From the NCBI GenBank assembly GCA_001871475.1, contig MNVE01000016.1, positions 197,343-261,342 on the forward strand: DNA of 64,000 bases, written 5' to 3'. Position numbers and translations under genes: made by a program. Each line of letters begins with the position of its first letter. The first letter of the stretch is position 1. Positions 50,786-64,000 of the stretch are shown piece after piece. The notes under the pieces were generated by a model. It did not search any database. It saw only the letters and a list, made by a program, of their open reading frames with translations, and had not been told where the DNA came from. Origin of the DNA: Candidatus Micrarchaeota archaeon CG1_02_47_40 (GTDB taxonomy: Archaea > Micrarchaeota > Micrarchaeia > Anstonellales > CG1-02-47-40).

Positions 50786-52123
50786 TATAGTGCTAAATAC
50801 TGAAAGGTGAATGGTGTTTTAGTAAATAAATGTGGAAAATGGGCTCATGAGTGCTAGATTGATGTTTCCGTTCAAGCCGCATATGTTTGTTGCGATGTTC
50901 ATGTTCCTGTTTATAGTATATGCAGTAATGCAGAATGAATGGAAGGTGCGCGTCCTGATGCTTGTTCCGGTGACTGTGCTTTTTGTGGTGTTTGTAGCCG
51001 CCTTTGCCTGGGGGGTTAGGGAGGTTTCGGCGGAAGCGGTGAGAGAGTATAAGAAGAAGGAGAATGCGAAGGGAAGAGGGATTGCCACAAAAGCTTTATA
51101 AACAGACCGCGCCATAAACACTGCTACCGAATTTTAACGGTAAATGAGGGGCAGAACCTGGTTTTGCCCCCCTGGATGGAATGAAACCCTTAGGGGGTTC
51201 CATCTGCTGTGGAAATCCGAAGCTTTCGGATTTGACTTGCGCTTCAAGTGGAAAAAAAAGACAAGCAGCAAAATAGAATTGCTCCTTAATGCAATTCCCT
51301 TAAGAAATAAGGAAATGAACTTTTGCAACTCCAGTTGATCCTGCTGGAGGATACTGCTATCAGAGTCCGACTAAGCCATGCAAGTCAGCCCGCAACCATT
51401 GCGGACGGCGTAAGGCTCAGTAACACGTAGTCAATCTGCCCTTTGGACGTGGACATCCTCGAGAAATTGAGGTTAACCCGCGATAGGCCATCTATGCTGG
51501 AATGCTTGATGGTTTAAAGGTGCGCGCGAATTGGAGTGCGCACGCCGGAGGATGAGACTGCGGTTGATTAGGTAGTTGGTGAGGTAACGGCTCACCAAGC
51601 CGATAATCAGTAGGGGCGATGGGAGTCGGAGCCCCGAGAAGAGCACTGAGACAAGGGCTCTAGTCCTACGGGATGCAGCAGGCGCGAAACCTCTGCAATG
51701 CGCTAAAGCGTGACAGGGGGACTCTGAGTGGCGGAGAACTTAGTTCTCCGTCTTTTGACAAGCTTAGATGGCTTGTAGAATAAGTGCTGGGTAAGACCAG
51801 TGCCAGCCGCCGCGGTAATACTGGCAGCACAAGTGGTATCCACGAATATTGGGTCTAAAGAGTTCGTAGCTGGCTTGCTAAGTTCACTGTGAAATCTTGG
51901 AGCCTAACTCCAAGGCGTGCAGTGAATACTGGCAGGCTTGAGAGCGGGGGAGGCGTGGAGTACTTACGGGGTAAGGGTAAAAAGGAGAGTATTGAATGCC
52001 GTAATGCGCAATACTTTTCATTATAATCTCGTAATCCTGTAAGGACTCACAGTGGCGAAGGCGCCACGCCAAAACGCGTCTGACAGTGAGGAACGAAGGC
52101 TAGGAGAACAAATCGGATTAGAT

Positions 52124-52837
52124 TTGGAGCTAGGGAAACGCTAATAAATAACAACGGATTGATAGAATTATGAGATTAGAGCGCCGGGTAAGAGACCTCG
52201 TGAGTAAGCAGAAACGAAAGCCGCTTATGAAGGTTAAACTTCCAGTCGAAACAAGCCCAGAACTCTGTAGAGTGCTTGGCATTCTACATGGCGATGGGAA
52301 TATGTCTGGAAGACGAGTTTTGCTAACCGACGAAAACAGGGTGTTCCACAGAACGATACATAAACTGTTTAAAACGGTTTTTGGAATTAGGATGAATCTG
52401 TTTCACGACATAAGAAGAAATTCGTATTACAGTTATACGAAAAGTGTCTTGGTGTATCGTTTTTTGAACGAAATAATGGAAATGCCCTGCGGTCCAGTAA
52501 GACAAAATCTGAAGATTCCGTCTTATATGGAAAAGCTTGGTTTGAAACACCAAGCAGAGTATGTTGGCGGACTCTTTGACGCTGAAGGATGCGTCAAAAC
52601 AAGACAGGCCGAACTCAACCTCTCATCTACTTCAAAGAATATCTTCAAGTTTATTGGAGGGTTTTTGAAGAAGATTGGGGTGACGTACAGTACGTATGAG
52701 AGGAGAAGGCACAAAAATCCGGAATATGAGATATATGTTTATGGAAAAGACGACTTGAAAAAATTTTCAAGATATGTTTCTTTTTTGCATCCGTTGAAAA
52801 TGAAAAAGATGGCGAAATTTCTTTAGCTCCACTAAAA
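52124..52837 (+). mobile_element. 16S rRNA intron 1 (after GGATTAGAT, E. coli ~790 region) encoding a LAGLIDADG homing endonuclease
   Basis: The exon breaks after GGATTAGAT and resumes at ACCCGAGTAGCCC. The intron ends TGGAGCTA...TAGCTCCA are complementary (BHB-like stem). Confidence 0.7.
52170..52826 (+). CDS. LAGLIDADG homing endonuclease (double-motif) encoded in 16S intron 1
   Basis: Motifs LGILHGDGN and VGGLFDAEGCV. 218 aa. Confidence 0.75.
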   Translation: MRLERRVRDLVSKQKRKPLMKVKLPVETSPELCRVLGILHGDGNMSGRRVLLTDENRVFHRTIHKLFKTVFGIRMNLFHDIRRNSYYSYTKSVLVYRFLNEIMEMPCGPVRQNLKIPSYMEKLGLKHQAEYVGGLFDAEGCVKTRQAELNLSSTSKNIFKFIGGFLKKIGVTYSTYERRRHKNPEYEIYVYGKDDLKKFSRYVSFLHPLKMKKMAKFL

Positions 52838-53010
52838 ACCCGAGTAGCCCTAGCAGTAAATGATGCAGACTGTGGTGTTGCGTCAGCCTAGAGCTGGCGC
52901 AGTGCTGTAGCGTAGACGGTGCGAGTTTGGGTAGATGCGGATAAGATGCAGCAAACGCGCACCGGCGGAAGTCTTAAGTCTGCCACCTGGGGAGTACGAT
53001 CGCAAGATTT

Positions 53011-53052
<42 letters not shown>

Positions 53053-53461
53053 GCTGCGGTTCAATTGGATACAACGCCGGGAATATTACCAGAAGAGACG
53101 GCAGAATGATGGCCAGACTGAAGATCTTGCCTGACAAGCCGAGAGGTACTGCACGGCCATCGTCAGCTCGTGGTGTGAACTGTCCCGTTAAGTCGGGAAA
53201 CGAGCGAGACCCTTATGTACTGTTGCCAGCTTTCCTTTGCAGGAAGGCGCACTCTGTACAGACTGCCCGTGTTAAATGGGAGGAGGGAGAGGGCGACGAT
53301 AGGTCAGTATGGTCTGAATCTTCTTGGGCTACACGTGGCTTACAATGGCTGGGACAATGGGCAGCAACTCCGAAAGGAGAAGCGAATCTCACAAACCCAG
53401 CCCAAGTTCGGATTGAGGGCTGGAACTCGCCCTCATGAAGCTGGAATCCCTAGTAATCGCT

Positions 53462-54233
53462 TGTCAACAATCGAGGCAATCTAGCGAAATGTTTATATTG
53501 TTAGCCGCATTTATTCTTGCGGTTAACAGTATGGAAACTAACTGGAAGAAGAATCCCAAATTGCTACAGAAGATAAGGGCATCGTTAGGATTTTCTCAAA
53601 TAAAATTTGCGAGGTTTCTTGGAACGAAGCAAAGCACTTTAAGCGCTCTTGAGCGGGGCGCGATAAAGACGGTTTCTGAAGAAGCCGCCGAGTGCTTTGC
53701 CAAGAGGCTAAAAGGTGTGAAAATTGCATTTATGACTGAAAATGAAATGCAACGGAAACTTTTGCAAATATCGCAAAGAGGAAAGTTCAAGGGAGAATAT
53801 GCAAGAAGTATGGCCCTTAAAGTACATAGTAAAAATGCAGTTGAGAGTGCAAAATCCCAACCTCTTACAAAACAGGAGGAAAGGATAAATACACTTTTGA
53901 AGGAAAGCGGACTGCGCTATGAGGCTCATCCCGCAATTGACGCGGGGGGCATTTCTTTCGTGGCAGATTTTAAGGTAGAAAAAAATAGATGGATGATTCT
54001 TATTGAGGCTAAAGAATTTAGGACGAAATATAGATTGAAAGCGCCTATATGCGAACTTGCATACAAGGCTACGCGGATAAAACGCTTCAATAAGAATGTG
54101 ATGATGGTTGCAGTCGTAAGCGGAAGACTTATGCAATCTGAGAAAAAGATTCTTTCGGATGAGTTTGACGCTGTTTTTGAAGATGAAGGAAAAATATTAG
54201 AATTCGTAAATAGATTGCCTTGAGTGAACTCGA
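53462..54233 (+). mobile_element. 16S rRNA intron 2 (after CCTAGTAATCGC, E. coli ~1350-1360 region); boundaries +/-15 nt
   Basis: The exon sequence ...GAATCCCTAGTAATCGC is interrupted and resumes at ...GCGGTGAATACGTCCC. It encodes a non-LAGLIDADG ORF. Confidence 0.65.
53489..54223 (+). CDS. intron-encoded HTH (XRE-type) plus PD-(D/E)xK-like nuclease-fold protein (putative novel homing endonuclease)
   Basis: HTH_3-like LQKIRASLGFSQIKFARFLGTKQSTLSALERG. The C-terminal AIDAGGISFVADF...WMILIEAKEF gives a D...ExK arrangement. The ORF-track start at 53435 lies in the rRNA exon, so the start was moved to an internal Met. Confidence 0.5.
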   Translation: MFILLAAFILAVNSMETNWKKNPKLLQKIRASLGFSQIKFARFLGTKQSTLSALERGAIKTVSEEAAECFAKRLKGVKIAFMTENEMQRKLLQISQRGKFKGEYARSMALKVHSKNAVESAKSQPLTKQEERINTLLKESGLRYEAHPAIDAGGISFVADFKVEKNRWMILIEAKEFRTKYRLKAPICELAYKATRIKRFNKNVMMVAVVSGRLMQSEKKILSDEFDAVFEDEGKILEFVNRLP

Positions 54234-54400
54234 GCGGTGAATACGTCCCCGCTCCTTGCACACACCGCCCGTCAAATCACCCAAACGAAGTTTTGGTGAG
54301 GCTTTGCTTCTTGGCAGACCCGAACCAATTCGTCGCGAGGGGGGTTAAGTCGTAACAAGGTATCCGTAGGGGAACCTGCGGATAGATCACCTCCAATATA

Positions 54401-57698: not shown

Positions 57699-59912
57699 TG
57701 TCTTTTTGCGGGAAATTGGAGAAACCCCCAAGAAAGGTTTATAAACAAATCTCTGCTTAACATATGCCACCCTTTTGAGCCGGAAAGTTAAAGGAGAGGC
57801 TTAAACATCAGCGTCCCTCGTGAAGGGGTTGCGATGCATGAATTATCACCCCTTAGGGTAGGTAATCTCAAACGGGTTGACGCATCCTGATGTTTTTGGG
57901 AGCGGATTCCAAGAGTATGAAGAAAAGTCGCATTTACAAAGTAGTAGAAGAAAGGATATGATATGTTTGTTACTGCCGGGCAGTGGATAGCTTGGCTTGG
58001 GCAAAATGCGGATCGTGGCAAGCTGCGAAATGCTCGGGGTAGGCGCAGGCAGCCTGTAATCCCGAGGTAATCCGTTTAATACGCGGGGAATCGAAACATC
58101 CTATTACCCGCAGGAAGAGAGAACAATTGTGATTTGGTAAGTAAGGGCGACTGAAAGCCAAAAAGGGCAACCTGAATACCCAACTGTAAGGTTGGGAAGA
58201 TGTGGGGCCGCCAACAACGCAAGTTGTTGGGCTGTGCTCGCAAGAGCACTTAAGTAACATCCGCCGCACTAGGGGAAGCTCCTGAAAAGGGGCGCCAAAG
58301 AGGGTGAAAGCCCCGTACCCGAAAAGCAGGCGGAGAAAGGCACAAAGAGTAGCGTCCATTGAGTATTGGACGCAAATATGGCGGTATCGATCGCCAACCC
58401 TAAACATACCCCAAGACCGATAGCGAAGAAGTAGCGCGAGCGAAAGCTGAAAAGGACCCCGAAAGGGGTGTTAAAAGAACTTGAAACTGTCCGGCTACAG
58501 TTTGATGCGGCATGAAAGCGTTAATATCTCCCGAAGCTACCGACCGAAAGGAAGGGTGCGAGGGGGATTCAGCGGTGTCGCATCCTCCTTCTATAAGCAA
58601 GGGCCAGGGAGTTTCTACCTGCGGCAAGGCGAGAGCCGGAGCGAAAGCGAGTGCGAAAGCGCGAAACAGTCGTTGGTAGCAGACCCGAAGCTGATGTGAG
58701 CTATACGTGGATAGGGCGAAGCCGGCCTGACGGCCGGTGGAGGCCCGCAACCAGTGCTAGTATATTCTGCTTGGGTGATCTACGTATAGGGGTGATAGTC
58801 CAGTCGAACTCAGCAATAGCGGGCTCCCCCCGAAGTATATCTCAGTATAGCGCCGCGGGAGTTGTTGCGCAAGGTAGAGCACTGATCGGAGAGTACGGGC
58901 CCGAGAGGGCTCACTTTCTTGTCAAACTCCGAATTTGCGCAAAACGAAGAACGCGGCAGTAGGCTTCTCTCGGGTAAGCCGAGAGGACTTTACGGGAACA
59001 ACCGGTACCGCGGTTAAGGTCCCAAAATTCTGGTTAAGTGTGACTCTCAAGGGGTCTCCAGTCTAAGACAGCTGGAAGGTAGGCTTAGAAGCAGCCATCC
59101 TTCAAACAACGCGTAATAGCGGACCAGCCGAGATTGCGGACCCCGAAGATGCTCGGGGCTAAATCAGATACCGATACCGCGGAATGGCGCACTGTTAGGT
59201 GCGCGCAATTTGGTAGGGGGGCGAACCGGTCGGGCAGAAGCGCGGGTGTGAACTCGCGTGGACCGGCCGGCTATGAAAATCCTGGTATTAGTAGCAGCAT
59301 ATCCAGGCGAGAATCCTGGACGCCGAAAGTACACGGTTTCCTTGGCCATGTTCTTCAGCCAAGGGTAAGGCGATCCTAAGCACGAGGCTAATTGCCAACT
59401 GTGCAAAAGGGAAACCGGTTAAAATTCCGGTCCCGGATAGATAGGCGCGGCAACGCATGATGCGTTCCTGACGTTTTGGGGTAGGTGCAGTGGAGGAGAC
59501 TCCATTTAAGCAAGATAAGCCTTCGGAGACTCATTGTGAGGAGAAGAAGGCTAAATTTGCGAGCGGCCGCACGGTTGCGCCAAGCCCCGGAGCCCTTGAA
59601 AAGGGAACGCGTAACGATTCTATCCGACCGTACCTAGAACCAGTACAGGTGATACTGGCAGAAAAAGCCAAGGCGTGGCAGGACAACTCTCGTAAGGGAA
59701 CTTGGCAAGTTAGTGGCGTAACTTCGGGATAAGCCATGCCTGCGGGCCTTTGCGGGCCTGCAGGTCTCAGTAACAAGGGGAGACCGACTGTTTACCAAAA
59801 ACACAGGTCATCGCAGAGCCGAAAGGCTAAGTACGATGGCCGATGCCTGCTCACTACTGGTACGTTAAACTCCGGTTCAACGGAGCAAAGCGCCAGCAAA
59901 GAGCGGGGGTAA

Positions 59913-60504
59913 TCGTCAGTTCCAATTTTAAACATCAAATGAGCTTGGTTCCATATGCAGAAGTTTGAGGAGTATTTTATAGGCGCACTTCAAGATGCGT
60001 ACGTCGATGAAAAGCGCAATGAGATTCAGCTGTACCAAAAGAATAAGGAATGGCTCGATTTTATTAATGCCAATCTTAAGAAAGATTACGGCATTACTGG
60101 AAAGATTTTCAAAAGAGACGTTTACTTGCTTAGAAAAAGAAGCAAAGCGTTTGTTTTGAAAATTAAAGAGGCAAAAACTAGAATGAATTCTTTTGGCGCG
60201 GATTTCGTCGCAGGGCTTTTTGATTCGGAAGGTTCTGTTTACCTTTCAACAAAATCAAAAATACCCATCATTGATGTAACGCAATCCGAAAAAGGATTGG
60301 AATATCTTAAGTGTGCGCAAAAAATTCTTATGGAGAATGGGATTGATTCGAAACTGAATGGCCCATATAAACATAAGCATGGAAAACTCCTGCAATATCA
60401 TCTGCGCATATATGGAAATAAAAAATGTGGGATATTTTTTAGGTTAATTCCCATTTATTATAAGAATAAGTTTGAGAAATGCTCATTTTGAACTGACGAC
60501 CCCA
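59913..60504 (+). mobile_element. 23S intron 1 (between GGGGGTAA and ACTCTGACCCTCTTA; E. coli ~1915-1925 region)
   Basis: Flanked by complementary TCGTCAGTT...AACTGACGA. Contains a single-motif LAGLIDADG ORF. Confidence 0.7.
59955..60491 (+). CDS. LAGLIDADG homing endonuclease (single-motif, homodimer type)
   Basis: Motif FVAGLFDSEGSV. 178 aa. Confidence 0.7.
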   Translation: MQKFEEYFIGALQDAYVDEKRNEIQLYQKNKEWLDFINANLKKDYGITGKIFKRDVYLLRKRSKAFVLKIKEAKTRMNSFGADFVAGLFDSEGSVYLSTKSKIPIIDVTQSEKGLEYLKCAQKILMENGIDSKLNGPYKHKHGKLLQYHLRIYGNKKCGIFFRLIPIYYKNKFEKCSF

Positions 60505-60703
60505 CACTCTGACCCTCTTATTTGGCTCTTGCAAGAAATTGCCGGAGCTGATGTGAGATAGGTAGCGTAATACCTCGCCGCTTAATTGGTGGCTTGCATG
60601 AATGGCATAACGCGTCTCCCACTGTCCCTACGAGGGACCTGGTGAACCTACTACTCTGTGAGTATGCAGAGGACTTCTAGGGGGAAACGAAGACCCCGTG
60701 GAG

Positions 60704-61467
60704 TTGGAAACTACTCTCTACCACCGGAAAACTACCGTCTCGGGAGGTTTATAAACAAGGAGAAACGAAAGGGAAAACATATGTTTGAACTTTCTCCCTT
60801 GCTTGCCTACGAGACAGGTGTCCATCTTGGTGACGGAAACTTGACGTACAATAAAAAATGGAACCTTTACAGAATAACTTACGCAGGAAATTCGGAAACG
60901 GATTCCGAATTTTTTGAGTGCGTTCTTCCAAAATTGATTTTCGAAGTTTATGGAAAACGGGTGCGGATTTATCATCCAAAGGGCGAGAAAACCGTTCTTG
61001 TTGTCCTAAACTCAAAGGAAATCGCAAGGTTCAAAATGGATGCGCTTGGGCTTCCTTCAGGAAATAAAAATCAGCTGAAGGAATTTCCAAGGAAGCTTAA
61101 GGAAAAATATCCTGCAGATATTGTACGAGGTTTGGCAGACACTGATTTCTGTCTTTATTTTAAGGATAGGAATAAGGATGGAATTGCCGAGATTCCGATT
61201 ATTGAAGGGTGCTTCTCAAACGAAGCGTTCTGTTCGGAAATCTCGGGGATACTTTTCAGATTGGGGATATTGCATTCTACGCGCAAGGTTGTTTCGCATA
61301 ATAAATATGTGGAACACCGAATACGCGTTGAGGGCAAAGGTCAGTTTTGCAGATGGATGGAAAAAATCGGGTTTTGGAATCCGAAACATCTTGCAAAAGC
61401 AGATGATTATTTTGGGAATTTTCCGGCAGAGTTTTAATTTTTTTAAACCAGTTTCCGACGCGGATAG
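60704..61467 (+). mobile_element. 23S intron 2 (after GAAGACCCCGTGGAG; E. coli ~1950 region)
   Basis: The exon resumes at CTTTACTATAGCCTG. The flanks TTGGAAACT...CCAGTTTCC are complementary. A TATA-like GGTTTATAAACAAGG lies ~25 nt before the HE start. Confidence 0.7.
60781..61437 (+). CDS. LAGLIDADG homing endonuclease (double-motif)
   Basis: Motifs LAYETGVHLGDGN and IVRGLADTDFCL. Start at MFELSPLL; the upstream part of the ORF is rRNA exon. Confidence 0.75.
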   Translation: MFELSPLLAYETGVHLGDGNLTYNKKWNLYRITYAGNSETDSEFFECVLPKLIFEVYGKRVRIYHPKGEKTVLVVLNSKEIARFKMDALGLPSGNKNQLKEFPRKLKEKYPADIVRGLADTDFCLYFKDRNKDGIAEIPIIEGCFSNEAFCSEISGILFRLGILHSTRKVVSHNKYVEHRIRVEGKGQFCRWMEKIGFWNPKHLAKADDYFGNFPAEF

Positions 61468-61631
61468 CTTTACTATAGCCTGCTGTTGAGATACGGTGAT
61501 GGTCGCGGAGCGTAAATGGGAGCCGTTACGCTGCATCTTTCGGGGTGCAGATAGGCGACATTGTAACACCATTCGATCGTTATTGTATTTCTTACCGGAA
61601 GGGACCGCGGCAGGTGGATAGTTTGGCTGGG

Positions 61632-62364
61632 AGTCCGAAGATTTAAGGAAAACAGGAATCAAGCAATGCGTTCTTTCTCACGCCGAGATTCTTGGAACGG
61701 GAGTCGGAAATGCGACTCTCGTCCAGAAATCTGACTTTGGTTGAGAAAATGGAAAGCGAGCGCTTGTCATAAACGCGAAGCCCGTGCGTTGAATGTGAAA
61801 CTCTGATGCCCAAGCTTTCAAAGCAGTTTGAAAGTTGGCTGCGCAGATGAGGATTATAGCATGCGATGTCGATGACTCCGCGCGGATGCGAACGGTCTAT
61901 GGAAATTGAACCGTCGCAGGAGCAGTATGCGCGTAAAAATGCGCATGTAAAAGATTTGGAGAGAAGAATGCTGTTTGGAATTTTGCATTTGGGATGTGTG
62001 CCGTCCGCAAACGGAGCAGTCCTGAATGTTGAAGCTTCCGAAAGCAGTTTTTTTGCGATTGGCACCGAGAAAAACCTCGCTGATTTCGCAGAACCGCAGC
62101 GGTTATAGGAGAAATTTCTTTTTCCGAATTCGCAATTAGTGATGTGCCTGAAATAGTCAAGCATTCCTTCAACAGTATTGGTGAATTGGATGCAGTATGT
62201 CCGTTTTGACTTGTCAAAATAGAGTGAACCGTCTGAAAGAAGCATTGCAAATAGTTGTGCTAAATTTTCGTTCATAATAAAACGAAATGTTTTTTGTTTA
62301 TAAGGGTGCGCAGGGAGTAGAAGTCCGCACCCTCCGATTCCTGCTTACATCTTCGGACCAGCAA
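61632..62364 (+). mobile_element. 23S intron 3 (after GTTTGGCTGGG; E. coli ~2065 region) carrying its HE gene on the opposite strand
   Basis: The exon resumes at GCGGTACATCCTCGATAAGGAAACAAGG. Flanks GTCCGAAGAT...ATCTTCGGAC are complementary. A hairpin GGGTGCG-(15 nt)-CGCACCC lies at 62303-62333. Confidence 0.65.
61643..62275 (-). CDS. LAGLIDADG homing endonuclease (double-motif) encoded antisense to the 23S rRNA
   Basis: Motifs LLSDGSLYF and LRAYCSCDGSIS. 210 aa. Its own TATA (CTTATAAACAA) lies ~28 nt upstream on the minus strand. Confidence 0.7.
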   Translation of the reverse strand: MNENLAQLFAMLLSDGSLYFDKSKRTYCIQFTNTVEGMLDYFRHITNCEFGKRNFSYNRCGSAKSARFFSVPIAKKLLSEASTFRTAPFADGTHPKCKIPNSILLSKSFTCAFLRAYCSCDGSISIDRSHPRGVIDIACYNPHLRSQLSNCFESLGIRVSHSTHGLRVYDKRSLSIFSTKVRFLDESRISDSRSKNLGVRKNALLDSCFP

Positions 62365-62632
62365 GCGGTACATCCTCGATAAGGAAACAAGGATGCCCAA
62401 TGTTCAGCTTAGGTGCGTTAGAAATGCACCGTTAAGGGTAAAGGACAAATGCTGGACTGACTGTGTTCCTAATAGCATGGGACGCAGAGGCGAAAGCCGG
62501 GCCTAACGAACCTTGGCACCCTTTTGATGAGGGTCCAAGCTGTCAGACAAGCTACCCCGGGGGTAATTCCACCGGCGGAGTTTTTTGATTAACTGTCAGT
62601 GGAACTCCATACAGGCTCGTCGCGGGCGAGAG

Positions 62633-62880
62633 ACAAATCTCTCCCGATTTTTAATTTAAGGACGATGCTTAAAGGTGTCTTCTATTCTCTAAAGTATTTT
62701 CTGCATTGATATGCAATAGCAAACCCGGCATTCGGGTTTGCTAGCTGTGCCGCACGAAAAGCGTGCGGCACTAAAAAGAAACATCTGGGATACTAAAGGA
62801 TAGTTGAACCTTTAGGCTAGTGTAAGGTTTTCGATACGAAAACTATATCGTCTGGTTTATGGGAGGCATTTGCTCAAATA
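62633..62880 (+). other. 23S intron 4, ORF-less structured intron (between GCGAGAG and CCCATCGACCCCGCGG; E. coli ~2449 region)
   Basis: About 248 nt with no ORF. Internal hairpins include AAACCCG-GCATT-CGGGTTT and GTGCCGCACG-AAAAG-CGTGCGGCAC. Confidence 0.55.
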
Positions 62881-63000
62881 CCCATCGACCCCGCGGTTTG
62901 GTACATCGCTGTCGGCCTAGGTCATCCTGGCGGTGCAGGAGCCGCCAATGGTTGGGTTGTTCATCCATTAAAGACCTACACGAGCTGGGTTCAGAACGTC

Positions 63001-63731
63001 AAGTTGGGCGTTGCTAGGCCGCAAGGCCTTGATAAATAAAATTGGCTCATATCGGTGAAACCTCGCTTTAAAAATATTGCAGACCGCAATGTTTGCAAGA
63101 AAGCGTGGCAATACCGAGGGAAGGCGAGATTTGTGGATTCAACAATGCTTGCGTATATCGCAGGGTTCCTTGATGGAGATGGCAGTATCTTCTTTCAGAT
63201 AGTCAGAAGAAAGGACTACCGTCGGAAATTCCAGATAAGAAGCAGCGTTGCTTTTTATCAGAAGACGGATTCGTGCCGCATTTTAAAGTGGCTCAAGGGA
63301 AGATTGAAAGCGGGGTATATCCGCCATCGCAAAACAGGAATCAGTGATTATACAATTGTCGAATCAAAAGAGGTGGAAAGGATTCTTTCCATTCTACATC
63401 CGTACGTGAAACTGAAGAAAAGACAGCTTGAACTTGGTTTGAAAATTCTGCGCAAACTCAAAAAATCACAAAGCAATAAGGATTTTCTTGGAGTTTGCAG
63501 GCAAGTTGACAAGTTTAAGCTGTTGAATTATTCCAAGAAAAGGACAGTGACATGTTCGGTCGTAAGCAAATCTTTGCCCCTGTAGAGACTGAGGCAGAAG
63601 TGGTCCTGAAAGGAACACGAAAATGCCGAGAGTCCTGCCAAAGGGCAGGGCTAAGACGCCGATCTCCCATGCAGCAAGCGTGGGATGGTGGTATAGTCCA
63701 TGCCATTCCGAAAGGAATGGATTAAACATGC
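63001..63731 (+). mobile_element. 23S intron 5 at the I-CreI homing site (CAGAACGTC^GCGAGACAGTTCGG; E. coli ~2593)
   Basis: The exon breaks after GGGTTCAGAACGTC and resumes at GCGAGACAGTTCGGT. Confidence 0.75.
63055..63585 (+). CDS. I-CreI-family single-motif LAGLIDADG homing endonuclease
   Basis: MLAYIAGFLDGDGSIFFQI...AGYIRHRKTGISDYTI...LKKRQLELGLKIL...DFLGVCRQVDKFKLLNYSKKRTVT parallels I-CreI (LYLAGFVDGDGSI...GYVRDRGSVSDY...KFLEVCTWVDQIAALNDSKTRKTT). The functional start is probably the internal Met at 63145. Confidence 0.8.
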   Translation: MKPRFKNIADRNVCKKAWQYRGKARFVDSTMLAYIAGFLDGDGSIFFQIVRRKDYRRKFQIRSSVAFYQKTDSCRILKWLKGRLKAGYIRHRKTGISDYTIVESKEVERILSILHPYVKLKKRQLELGLKILRKLKKSQSNKDFLGVCRQVDKFKLLNYSKKRTVTCSVVSKSLPL

Positions 63732-64000
63732 GCGAGACAGTTCGGTAGTATCTCCTAGGAGTGTTTCCGCCTGAGAGGAAGAACCCTTAAGTACGAGAGG
63801 AACTTGGGTTCGGCGCCTCTGGTGTACCAGTTGTGCAAAGCACCGCTGGGCAGCTACGCGCTATTGGATAAGACCTGAAAGCATCTAAGGTCGAAGTCAA
63901 TCTCAAAACGAGGCGGATTGGGCGGTCGTAGCAGACGACTTTGATAGAAGGGGGGTGTAAGAGCTAAGCGCAAGCGAGGCTTTCAGCCTGTCCCTTACTA

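Follow-up and report, generated by a model that had tools for sequence, protein, structure and literature searches.

An IA-type group I intron with an I-CreI-family homing endonuclease gene at position 2593 of an archaeal 23S rRNA gene

What kind of element interrupts the 23S ribosomal RNA (rRNA) gene of an archaeon at the nucleotide used by the chloroplast intron that encodes I-CreI, and how did it come to be there? This question is raised by a 64,000-nucleotide (nt) stretch of Candidatus Micrarchaeota archaeon CG1_02_47_40 (assembly GCA_001871475.1, contig MNVE01000016.1, positions 197,343 to 261,342 of the forward strand), referred to below as the window. The original prediction, made from the letters of the window, had proposed an archaeal I-CreI homologue at the I-CreI site. 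Enzyme and site are both borne out here, whereas the prediction had overlooked that the intron is a group I ribozyme, which is unusual for an archaeon, and that elements of this class had already been published (PMC6125680). We are highly confident that a mobile intron of group I, belonging to the IA3 / L2593 lineage, interrupts the 23S gene of the window, whose host is a DPANN archaeon (probably Micrarchaeota-like), and that loop L6 of this intron contains an I-CreI-family homing endonuclease gene. The element belongs to the class described in 2018 (PMC6125680).

Insertion site and ribozyme core

The archaeal large-subunit (LSU) rRNA gene spans 57974-64000 of the window (Rfam RF02540, 1809.6 bits), and the archaeal small-subunit (SSU) rRNA gene begins at 51328 (Rfam). 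Both genes far exceed the length of their Rfam models and therefore contain insertions. BLASTN comparison with related loci resolved LSU exon blocks that end at 59913, cover 60556-60712, 61450-61631 and 62365-62566, and continue from 62873 onward. The intron studied here is the last LSU insertion, 731 nt in length, and lies between ...CAGAACGT and CGCGAGACAGTTCGG. The upstream exon (...GGGTTCAGAACGT) ends at 62999 with U62999 as its last base, and the downstream exon starts at 63731, which places the insertion after E. coli U2593 (LSU numbering). This nucleotide is where the introns of I-CreI and of I-MsoI are inserted, with n.2588-2594 forming target positions -9 to -3 (PMC3315327), so that the predicted location at the I-CreI site of the 23S gene is correct. 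The predicted insertion was also real, but its boundaries (63001-63731) were one base too far to the right. A C flanks both intron ends, and the cut position is therefore ambiguous from the sequence alone; cuts at 63001-63731 and at 63000-63730 yield an identical spliced product. We set the intron at 63000-63730 because only that cut gives a U at the end of the 5' exon and a G at the end of the intron, in accordance with group I rules. The junction, ACGT followed by CG[TC]GAGACAG, is common to the window and to the related loci with readable exon junctions.

Its sequence features identify the element as an IA-type group I intron and not as an archaeal bulge-helix-bulge (BHB) intron. Its helices follow the order P1-P2-P3-P4-P5-P4'-P6[ORF]-P6'-P7-P7.1-P7.2-P3'-P8-P7'-P9, where ORF stands for the open reading frame in L6. 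The features are as follows; locus numbers (L064 and the like) are our own and denote related loci.

63000-63730, plus strand: group I intron, IA-type, LSU 2593; exon motifs on both sides, aligned throughout with L064 and L023, helices covarying
62995-62999, plus strand: 5' exon strand of P1, AACGU, pairing with GCGUU at 63008-63012, with a U·G wobble (U62999·G63008) at the splice site
63008-63012, plus strand: internal guide sequence (3' strand of P1), GCGUU; the minimum-energy junction fold recovers AACGUC/GGCGUU
63014-63031, plus strand: P2 hairpin, CUAGGCC GCAA GGCCUUG, covarying
63041-63046, plus strand: 5' strand of P3, AUUGGC, pairing with 63658-63663 across the ORF
63052-63057 with 63112-63117, plus strand: P4, enclosing P5; the minimum-energy fold recovers P4 and P5
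63060-63069 with 63100-63109, plus strand: P5, covarying at its base (U·U vs C-G, A·C vs G·U)
63123-63128, plus strand: 5' strand of P6, GGCGAG, pairing with 63573-63578 and closing round the ORF
63133-63585, plus strand: homing endonuclease gene in L6, 150 amino acids (aa), single LAGLIDADG motif, I-CreI family; GTG start, TAG stop
63573-63578, plus strand: 3' strand of P6, UUUGCC, overlapping the last ORF codons
63585-63590, plus strand: 5' strand of P7, G[A]GACU with bulged A, pairing with AGUCC at 63695-63699; its first base is the G of the stop codon
63593-63596 with 63624-63627, plus strand: P7.1, plus an inner hairpin, from per-sequence folding
63632-63639 with 63644-63651, plus strand: P7.2, from per-sequence folding
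63658-63663, plus strand: 3' strand of P3, GCCGAU, covarying
63665-63685, plus strand: P8 hairpin, UCCCAUGC ... GCGUGGGA, covarying
63695-63699, plus strand: 3' strand of P7, AGUCC; the J8/7 segment GGUGGUAU comes before it, and the segment is covered by the Rfam group I alignment
63703-63730, plus strand: P9 hairpin (63703-63709 with 63714-63720) and 3' tail, terminal G at 63730
63731-63745, plus strand: 3' exon, CGCGAGACAGTTCGG, E. coli 2594-2608

Covariation was assessed in the aligned non-coding parts of 47 distinct introns, with 500 column shuffles and slid helices as controls. Pairing in P2, P3, P6 and P8 ranged from 93.5 to 100%, with several pair types in each helix, and exceeded all shuffles and slid controls. 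In P2, 95.7% of cells were paired, with four to six pair types at six of the seven positions. P3, which spans the ORF, was paired in 47/47 introns at all six positions (two to three pair types at five of them), compared with 11-28% in the slid controls. The corresponding values were 94% of cells for P6, which covaries (GC/AT/TA and TA/CG), and 93.5% for P8 with up to five pair types per position; P2, P6 and P8 each lay above all 500 shuffles. Two independent compensatory exon/guide changes were found in P1, namely GACCGU/GCGGUC (L028, L039) and AUACGU/GCGUA (L019). The region of P7.1 and P7.2 was assessed by per-sequence folding, as length variation makes the MAFFT columns unreliable there, and folds as at least two hairpins of differing sequence in 43/47 introns. 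Such an extension is a hallmark of group IA and is also present in cyanobacterial L2593 introns (PMC1995217).

The GAGACU of P7 is unchanged in 47/47 introns, and GGTATAGTCC is invariant among the relatives. The form of this helix resembles that of Tetrahymena P7, which we take to be C[A]GACU/AGUCG, the bulged A presumably being typical of the guanosine-binding helix. A P9 hairpin occurs at the same place in every relative, and the intron-terminal G63730 stands directly before CGCGAGACAG. The assignment to subgroup IA3 was made because the intron aligns with the published introns IA3.1 and IA3.10, on which more is said below. Two early manual pairings were rejected: UCGGUG/CGCCGA for P3, since AUUGGC/GCCGAU covaries and UCGGUG belongs to P4, and GGGCUA/UAGUCC for P7, since GCUAA is not conserved opposite AGUC and GAGACU is invariant.

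The endonuclease and its predicted target

The public gene call for the ORF, P0001, comprises 176 aa from GTG 63055, 78 nt upstream of GTG 63133, and the intervening 63055-63132 form part of the P3-P6 ribozyme core. Because its homologues begin at MDSTxLAYIAGF, as seen in 37 relatives of 150-153 aa, the protein likely starts at GTG 63133, and the 176-aa call probably over-extends through the P3-P6 core. At the other end of the gene the stop codon overlaps P7. Immediately upstream of the start codon, the 5' strand of P6 contains a purine-rich run that resembles a Shine-Dalgarno sequence. This strand (AAGGCGAG; family consensus AAGGUGAG) matches weakly the anti-Shine-Dalgarno sequence AGATCACCTCC at the 3' end of the 16S gene (54384-94); a role as ribosome-binding site is something we infer only.

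The protein has a single domain with one motif, assigned to Pfam LAGLIDADG_1. The original prediction had claimed a whole-length alignment with I-CreI by way of four motifs, and had named similarity no better than that to unrelated LAGLIDADG proteins as the result that would speak against it. All motifs are present (IAGFLDGDGSI, GYIRHRKTGISDY, DFLGVC, VDKFKLLNYSK), and a phmmer search of the PDB matched, over the full length, I-CreI (E ~1e-23), I-CvuI (~1e-21) and I-MsoI (~1e-19), far above other LAGLIDADG proteins at E ~1e-5 or weaker. A BLASTP alignment with I-CreI covers 141 aa at 40% identity (E 1e-30). When the proteins are placed in one alignment, that of the window has 38% identity with I-CreI and 39% with I-MsoI, and I-CreI and I-MsoI share 40%. 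An AlphaFold2 model (predicted local distance difference score 88.8) was compared with the PDB by Foldseek, and the top match of this predicted model was I-CreI, with a template-modelling (TM) score of 0.91 and a root-mean-square deviation of 1.5 Å over 148 columns. The next family in the fold search was that of the single-motif enzyme I-TnaI, with a TM score of 0.75 and 13% identity. The predicted fold is thus the I-CreI fold, C-terminal helices included.

Of the I-CreI catalytic residues G19, D20, Q47, K98 and R51, the equivalents of the first four are kept, as are those of Q26, Y33, Q38, Y66, R68, R70 and D75. In I-CreI, Y33, Q38, R68 and R70 contact bases (PMC1702487). The intron-less target was obtained by joining 62985-62999 to the 3' exon (TCAGAACGT followed by CGCGAGACAGTTCGG) and was numbered after PMC3315327. 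The predicted 22-bp site, CAGAACGTCGCGAGACAGTTCG, is nearly palindromic; the predicted target duplex contains TCAGAACGTCGCGAGACAGTTCGG, and the predicted RNA junction of the ligated exons reads ...GAACGU-CGCGAGAC. Compared with the I-CreI site, which we take to be CAAAACGTCGTGAGACAGTTTG, 19/22 positions are identical, the differences being A>G at -9, T>C at -1 and T>C at +10. An rRNA stem has its two ends at n.2588 and n.2606 (PMC3315327), the nucleotides equivalent to -9 and +10, and the changes at these positions look like one compensated pair. Position -1 falls within the central four bases, to which I-CreI makes no base-specific contacts, and the 2588-2606 target is nearly invariant across ribosomes (PMC3315327). 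With a C at -1, the predicted central four bases are therefore GCGA and not GTGA. This exon base (63732; E. coli U2596) is C in the window and in 18/32 archaeal hosts, compared with 2/23 bacterial hosts. The window protein shares the residues of I-MsoI at three positions, 30 (R), 32 (D) and 77 (T). The I-MsoI target presumably agrees with that of the window in its bases at -9 (G) and +10 (C), and we regard this match between I-MsoI-like residues and I-MsoI-like target bases as a lead rather than a result.

By homology, splicing, dimerisation, the cleavage pattern and homing are expected to proceed as follows. The intron RNA would fold into the P1-P9 core, and an external guanosine would attack after U62999, which a U·G wobble to G63008 holds in P1. 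Once freed, the exon end would attack after the terminal G63730, and the rejoined exons would restore the 2588-2606 stem-loop of the peptidyl-transferase centre. The 150-aa protein would dimerise via its LAGLIDADG helix, bind the 22-bp intron-less site and cut across the central GCGA to leave 4-nt 3' overhangs, and repair from an intron-carrying copy would insert the intron.

Several findings weigh against a mobile group I intron with an active I-CreI-type enzyme. P4 and P7 never vary, and covariation thus neither supports nor contradicts either helix, while the alignment columns of P9 and distal P5 are too shifted by length variation for pair counts. The general Rfam model of group I introns (RF00028) reached only 19.7 bits (E 0.017), below its gathering score of 50, and matched the 3' half only. 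The core is split by 450 nt of ORF in L6; subgroup-specific models were needed for the published archaeal introns, IA3.1 being detected as two pieces (PMC6125680). On the side of the protein, the equivalent of I-CreI R51 is Ser (N, Y or H in relatives, Lys in I-MsoI), and several base-contact residues of I-CreI are changed (K28V, N30R, S32D, S40R, Q44A and T46Y); I77T also differs. Given these changed contact residues, the recognition details and even the activity of the protein are putative.

These substitutions could also mean that the group I intron is real and that its endonuclease has ceased to be a mobility enzyme, being either inactive or kept for another role such as that of a maturase. 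LAGLIDADG proteins with maturase activity are known, and DPANN genomes presumably carry a single rRNA operon, which would leave little chance of homing within one cell. We consider this explanation unlikely. The ORF is full-length, and 49 positions are invariant among 38 relatives of about 70% identity. The equivalents of D20, Q47, K98, R68, R70, Y33, Q26 and Q38 are kept, and R51 is not conserved in the active enzyme I-MsoI either.

Relatives, history and competing explanations

A scan of the GTDB species genomes with the single window protein gave no match, and a profile scan of the same genomes with the 38-sequence alignment gave 466 loci, 80 of which were kept for study. A search of a metagenome protein database returned 894 relatives at E <1e-5; the best 120 of these, apart from the identical P0001, are 67-77% identical to the window protein, and the one that is informatively named belongs to Candidatus Nanoarchaeia. 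Among the GTDB loci, Nanoarchaeia and Woese-, Pace- and Micrarchaeota, all of them DPANN archaea, have the closest ones (54-75% identical). Those of a second group (56-63%) come mostly from Gammaproteobacteria, including Thiomargarita. Relatives that are 57-64% identical to the window protein sit at the same nucleotide of bacterial 23S genes. The third group (44-54%) comprises the candidate phyla radiation (CPR), Omnitrophota, Planctomycetia, Chloroflexota and others. Hosts were classed by a crude test, the similarity of the 3' exon to the window and to L026, a locus flanked by bacterial LSU and 5S rRNA (Rfam). With the exception of L013, the test separates archaeal-like from bacterial-like hosts in line with the bin labels. 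L013 (JAHISW010000018.1), a 2.3-kb contig binned as 'Patescibacteria group bacterium', has archaeal-like exons and matches the Woesearchaeota locus L011 in every compared stretch, and is probably mis-binned. For exons and enzyme alike, the locus nearest to the window is the Micrarchaeota locus L002, with a 3' exon identity of 94% and a protein identity of 74%.

A neighbour-joining tree places the archaeal enzymes in a single clade, whose sister clade is rich in Gammaproteobacteria, within a wider bacterial radiation, and I-CreI and I-MsoI fall outside. The tree is crude (no support values, midpoint rooting, sampling biased towards the archaeal query), and its topology is only suggestive. Archaeal and gammaproteobacterial copies share long identical ribozyme stretches, whereas their flanking exons are about 71% identical. 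Given how similar protein and ribozyme are beside exons of such limited identity, it appears more probable that the intron moved horizontally as a whole than that it was inherited vertically from ancient times. The original prediction had left a choice between conservation of the enzyme/target pair across domains and cross-domain transfer. The pairing does extend across domains, at the same nucleotide of bacterial 23S genes, and of the two options it is transfer that is favoured, by a tree without bootstrap.

The alternative is that the pair of enzyme and site predates the split of the domains and has passed down vertically, without transfer between domains, to Archaea, Bacteria and plastids. 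It gains some plausibility from the near-invariance of the 2588-2606 target (PMC3315327), as the site could always have existed. It would nevertheless require enzymes that are 57-64% identical, and shared ribozyme stretches, to sit beside an exon identity of about 71% in a highly conserved part of the rRNA. The archaeal enzymes moreover form one clade nested among bacterial clades, the hosts are patchy (DPANN, CPR, scattered Gammaproteobacteria, Omnitrophota, Planctomycetia), and frequent horizontal movement of such elements has been inferred in the literature (PMC1995217; PMC11270868). We therefore regard vertical inheritance without transfer as very unlikely.

Among the archaeal relatives, 16/32 end in A instead of the near-universal G (...TA before CG[TC]GAGACAG), namely L005, L007, L010, L015-L022, L024, L025, L027, L032 and L042, and their guanosine-binding helix P7 is unchanged. 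In these A-ending relatives no alternative splice register restores the normal exon sequence. All bacterial relatives assessed (23/23) end in G. Tentatively, the whole intron may have crossed once, and fairly recently, between Bacteria and Archaea, the partner being Gammaproteobacteria- or CPR-like, and may then have spread within DPANN. About half of the archaeal copies would then have swapped their terminal G for A while keeping the G-site of P7, and would perhaps be spliced or removed non-canonically.

The closest known systems are the archaeal introns of Nawrocki, Jones and Eddy (2018, NAR 46:7970), who described 39 archaeal group I introns, ten of them of subgroup IA3 at LSU/2593 in Woese-, Pace- and Micrarchaeota, and who drew the full structure of IA3.1 with a LAGLIDADG gene in P6 (PMC6125680). 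IA3.1 (archaeon GW2011_AR20, CP010426) is our L064, and IA3.10 (Micrarchaeota metagenome-assembled genome, MAG, MNVF01000017) is L023. These introns share with the window the DPANN host group, the gene, the nucleotide and the ribozyme type, the P6 LAGLIDADG gene being reported for IA3.1 (PMC6125680). Organism and sequence differ: the identity of the window protein is 54-56% with the L064 protein and 66-67% with the L023 protein. The text of that paper contains no occurrence of I-CreI and reports neither the bacterial sister clade nor the A-terminated variants (PMC6125680).

The Cr.LSU intron with I-CreI from the Chlamydomonas reinhardtii chloroplast 23S gene, like the introns of I-MsoI and I-CvuI, is inserted after the same U2593, and its ORF presumably also lies in L6. 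Its relatives encode single-motif proteins of about 150-170 aa of the homodimer type, similar to the 150-aa protein of the window. The window differs from the I-CreI system in its archaeal host, in the residues given above (28, 30, 32, 40, 44, 46, 51 and 77) and in the centre of the target (GCGA vs GTGA). Cyanobacterial L2593 introns (Synechococcus C1 and C9, Thermosynechococcus; Haugen et al. 2007, PMC1995217) occupy the same site and carry a single-motif LAGLIDADG gene. They measure about 745 nt, compared with 731 nt in the window, and both have a short P2, a short P5 and P7.1/P7.2 (PMC1995217). By their published description, the ORF likewise extends from a peripheral loop into the core; their hosts, in contrast, are bacterial (PMC1995217). 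Insertions at 2593 in CPR 23S genes (Tsurumaki et al. 2024, PMC11270868) likewise share the site and Pfam LAGLIDADG_1. Their hosts are bacterial, and the CPR loci fall into a more distant clade of our tree, with proteins 44-54% identical to that of the window.

The window adds one well-resolved case to the group I introns of Archaea. It also makes explicit that the enzymes of archaeal L2593 introns are true members of the I-CreI family, about as near to I-CreI as I-MsoI is. In this large family (894 proteins; 466 GTDB loci), the meganuclease scaffold that has been engineered most varies naturally, while its target stays nearly constant. This variation could help to study the drift of LAGLIDADG recognition; it opens no new question.

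The usual archaeal rRNA introns are of the BHB type and often carry LAGLIDADG genes (PMC6125680). The element could accordingly be an ordinary intron of this kind, as known from Desulfurococcus (I-DmoI) and Pyrobaculum (I-PorI), cut by the tRNA-splicing endonuclease and not self-splicing, and other insertions of the same 23S gene do look BHB-like, with long terminal complementarity and no group I match. We consider this highly improbable. A joint fold of both junctions (one minimum-energy fold) gives P1, P2 and P9, with no BHB motif and no helix linking the intron ends, and the covariation of P3 and P6 across the ORF, the U·G wobble, the terminal G and the form of P7 are group I features. Near-identical ribozyme cores occur in bacterial hosts, and bacteria, to our knowledge, lack the BHB splicing enzyme. 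BHB rRNA introns of the I-DmoI, I-PorI and I-ApeI types have in common with the window an archaeal rRNA host and the LAGLIDADG superfamily, and differ in splicing mechanism. Their enzymes are two-domain monomers at other rRNA positions, and the match of the window protein to the I-DmoI type is marginal (E 0.2; PDB 2dch).

A misjoined bacterial or organellar 23S fragment with its intron on an archaeal contig can hardly be the explanation, even though MAG data are error-prone and L013 shows archaeal-like sequence under a Patescibacteria label, as the exons on both sides lie in one archaeal LSU alignment and match the Micrarchaeota MAG loci L002 and L023 at 78-94%, the same protein with its neighbours was found on contigs from four independent samples, and the arrangement recurs at about 30 other DPANN loci.

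Other insertions in the rRNA genes

Four more insertions, delimited by the BLASTN blocks, interrupt the 23S gene at 59914-60555, 60713-61449, 61632-62364 and 62567-62872. In none of the four was a group I match found with Rfam up to E = 10. The first and the third have long terminal complementarity and a BHB-like look. The fourth is 306 nt long, lies near E. coli position 2450 and is without an ORF. The other three contain the following ORFs:

59955-60491, plus strand: LAGLIDADG_3-type ORF, in insertion 59914-60555
60781-61437, plus strand: LAGLIDADG_3-type ORF (weak match), in insertion 60713-61449
61643-62275, minus strand: LAGLIDADG_3-type ORF, in insertion 61632-62364, antisense to the rRNA

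The 16S gene reaches to about 54394, with a local Rfam match to 54384. An insertion at about 52100-52850 contains an ORF (52170-52826) for a 218-aa LAGLIDADG_3 protein (E 1.5e-16). Another, of about 800 nt (about 53440-54260), lies near the 3' end of the gene and is associated with the ORF 53435-54223 for a protein of 262 aa, for which the PDB search returned no relative. An XRE-type helix-turn-helix (Pfam HTH_3, E 9e-7) forms the N-terminus of this protein, and a D...EAK motif in its C-terminal part, to which no domain could be assigned, may be PD-(D/E)XK-like. A helix-turn-helix ORF is unusual for an rRNA insertion, and together with the half of the archaeal relatives that end in A, this 16S insertion is the least ordinary observation outside the main finding.

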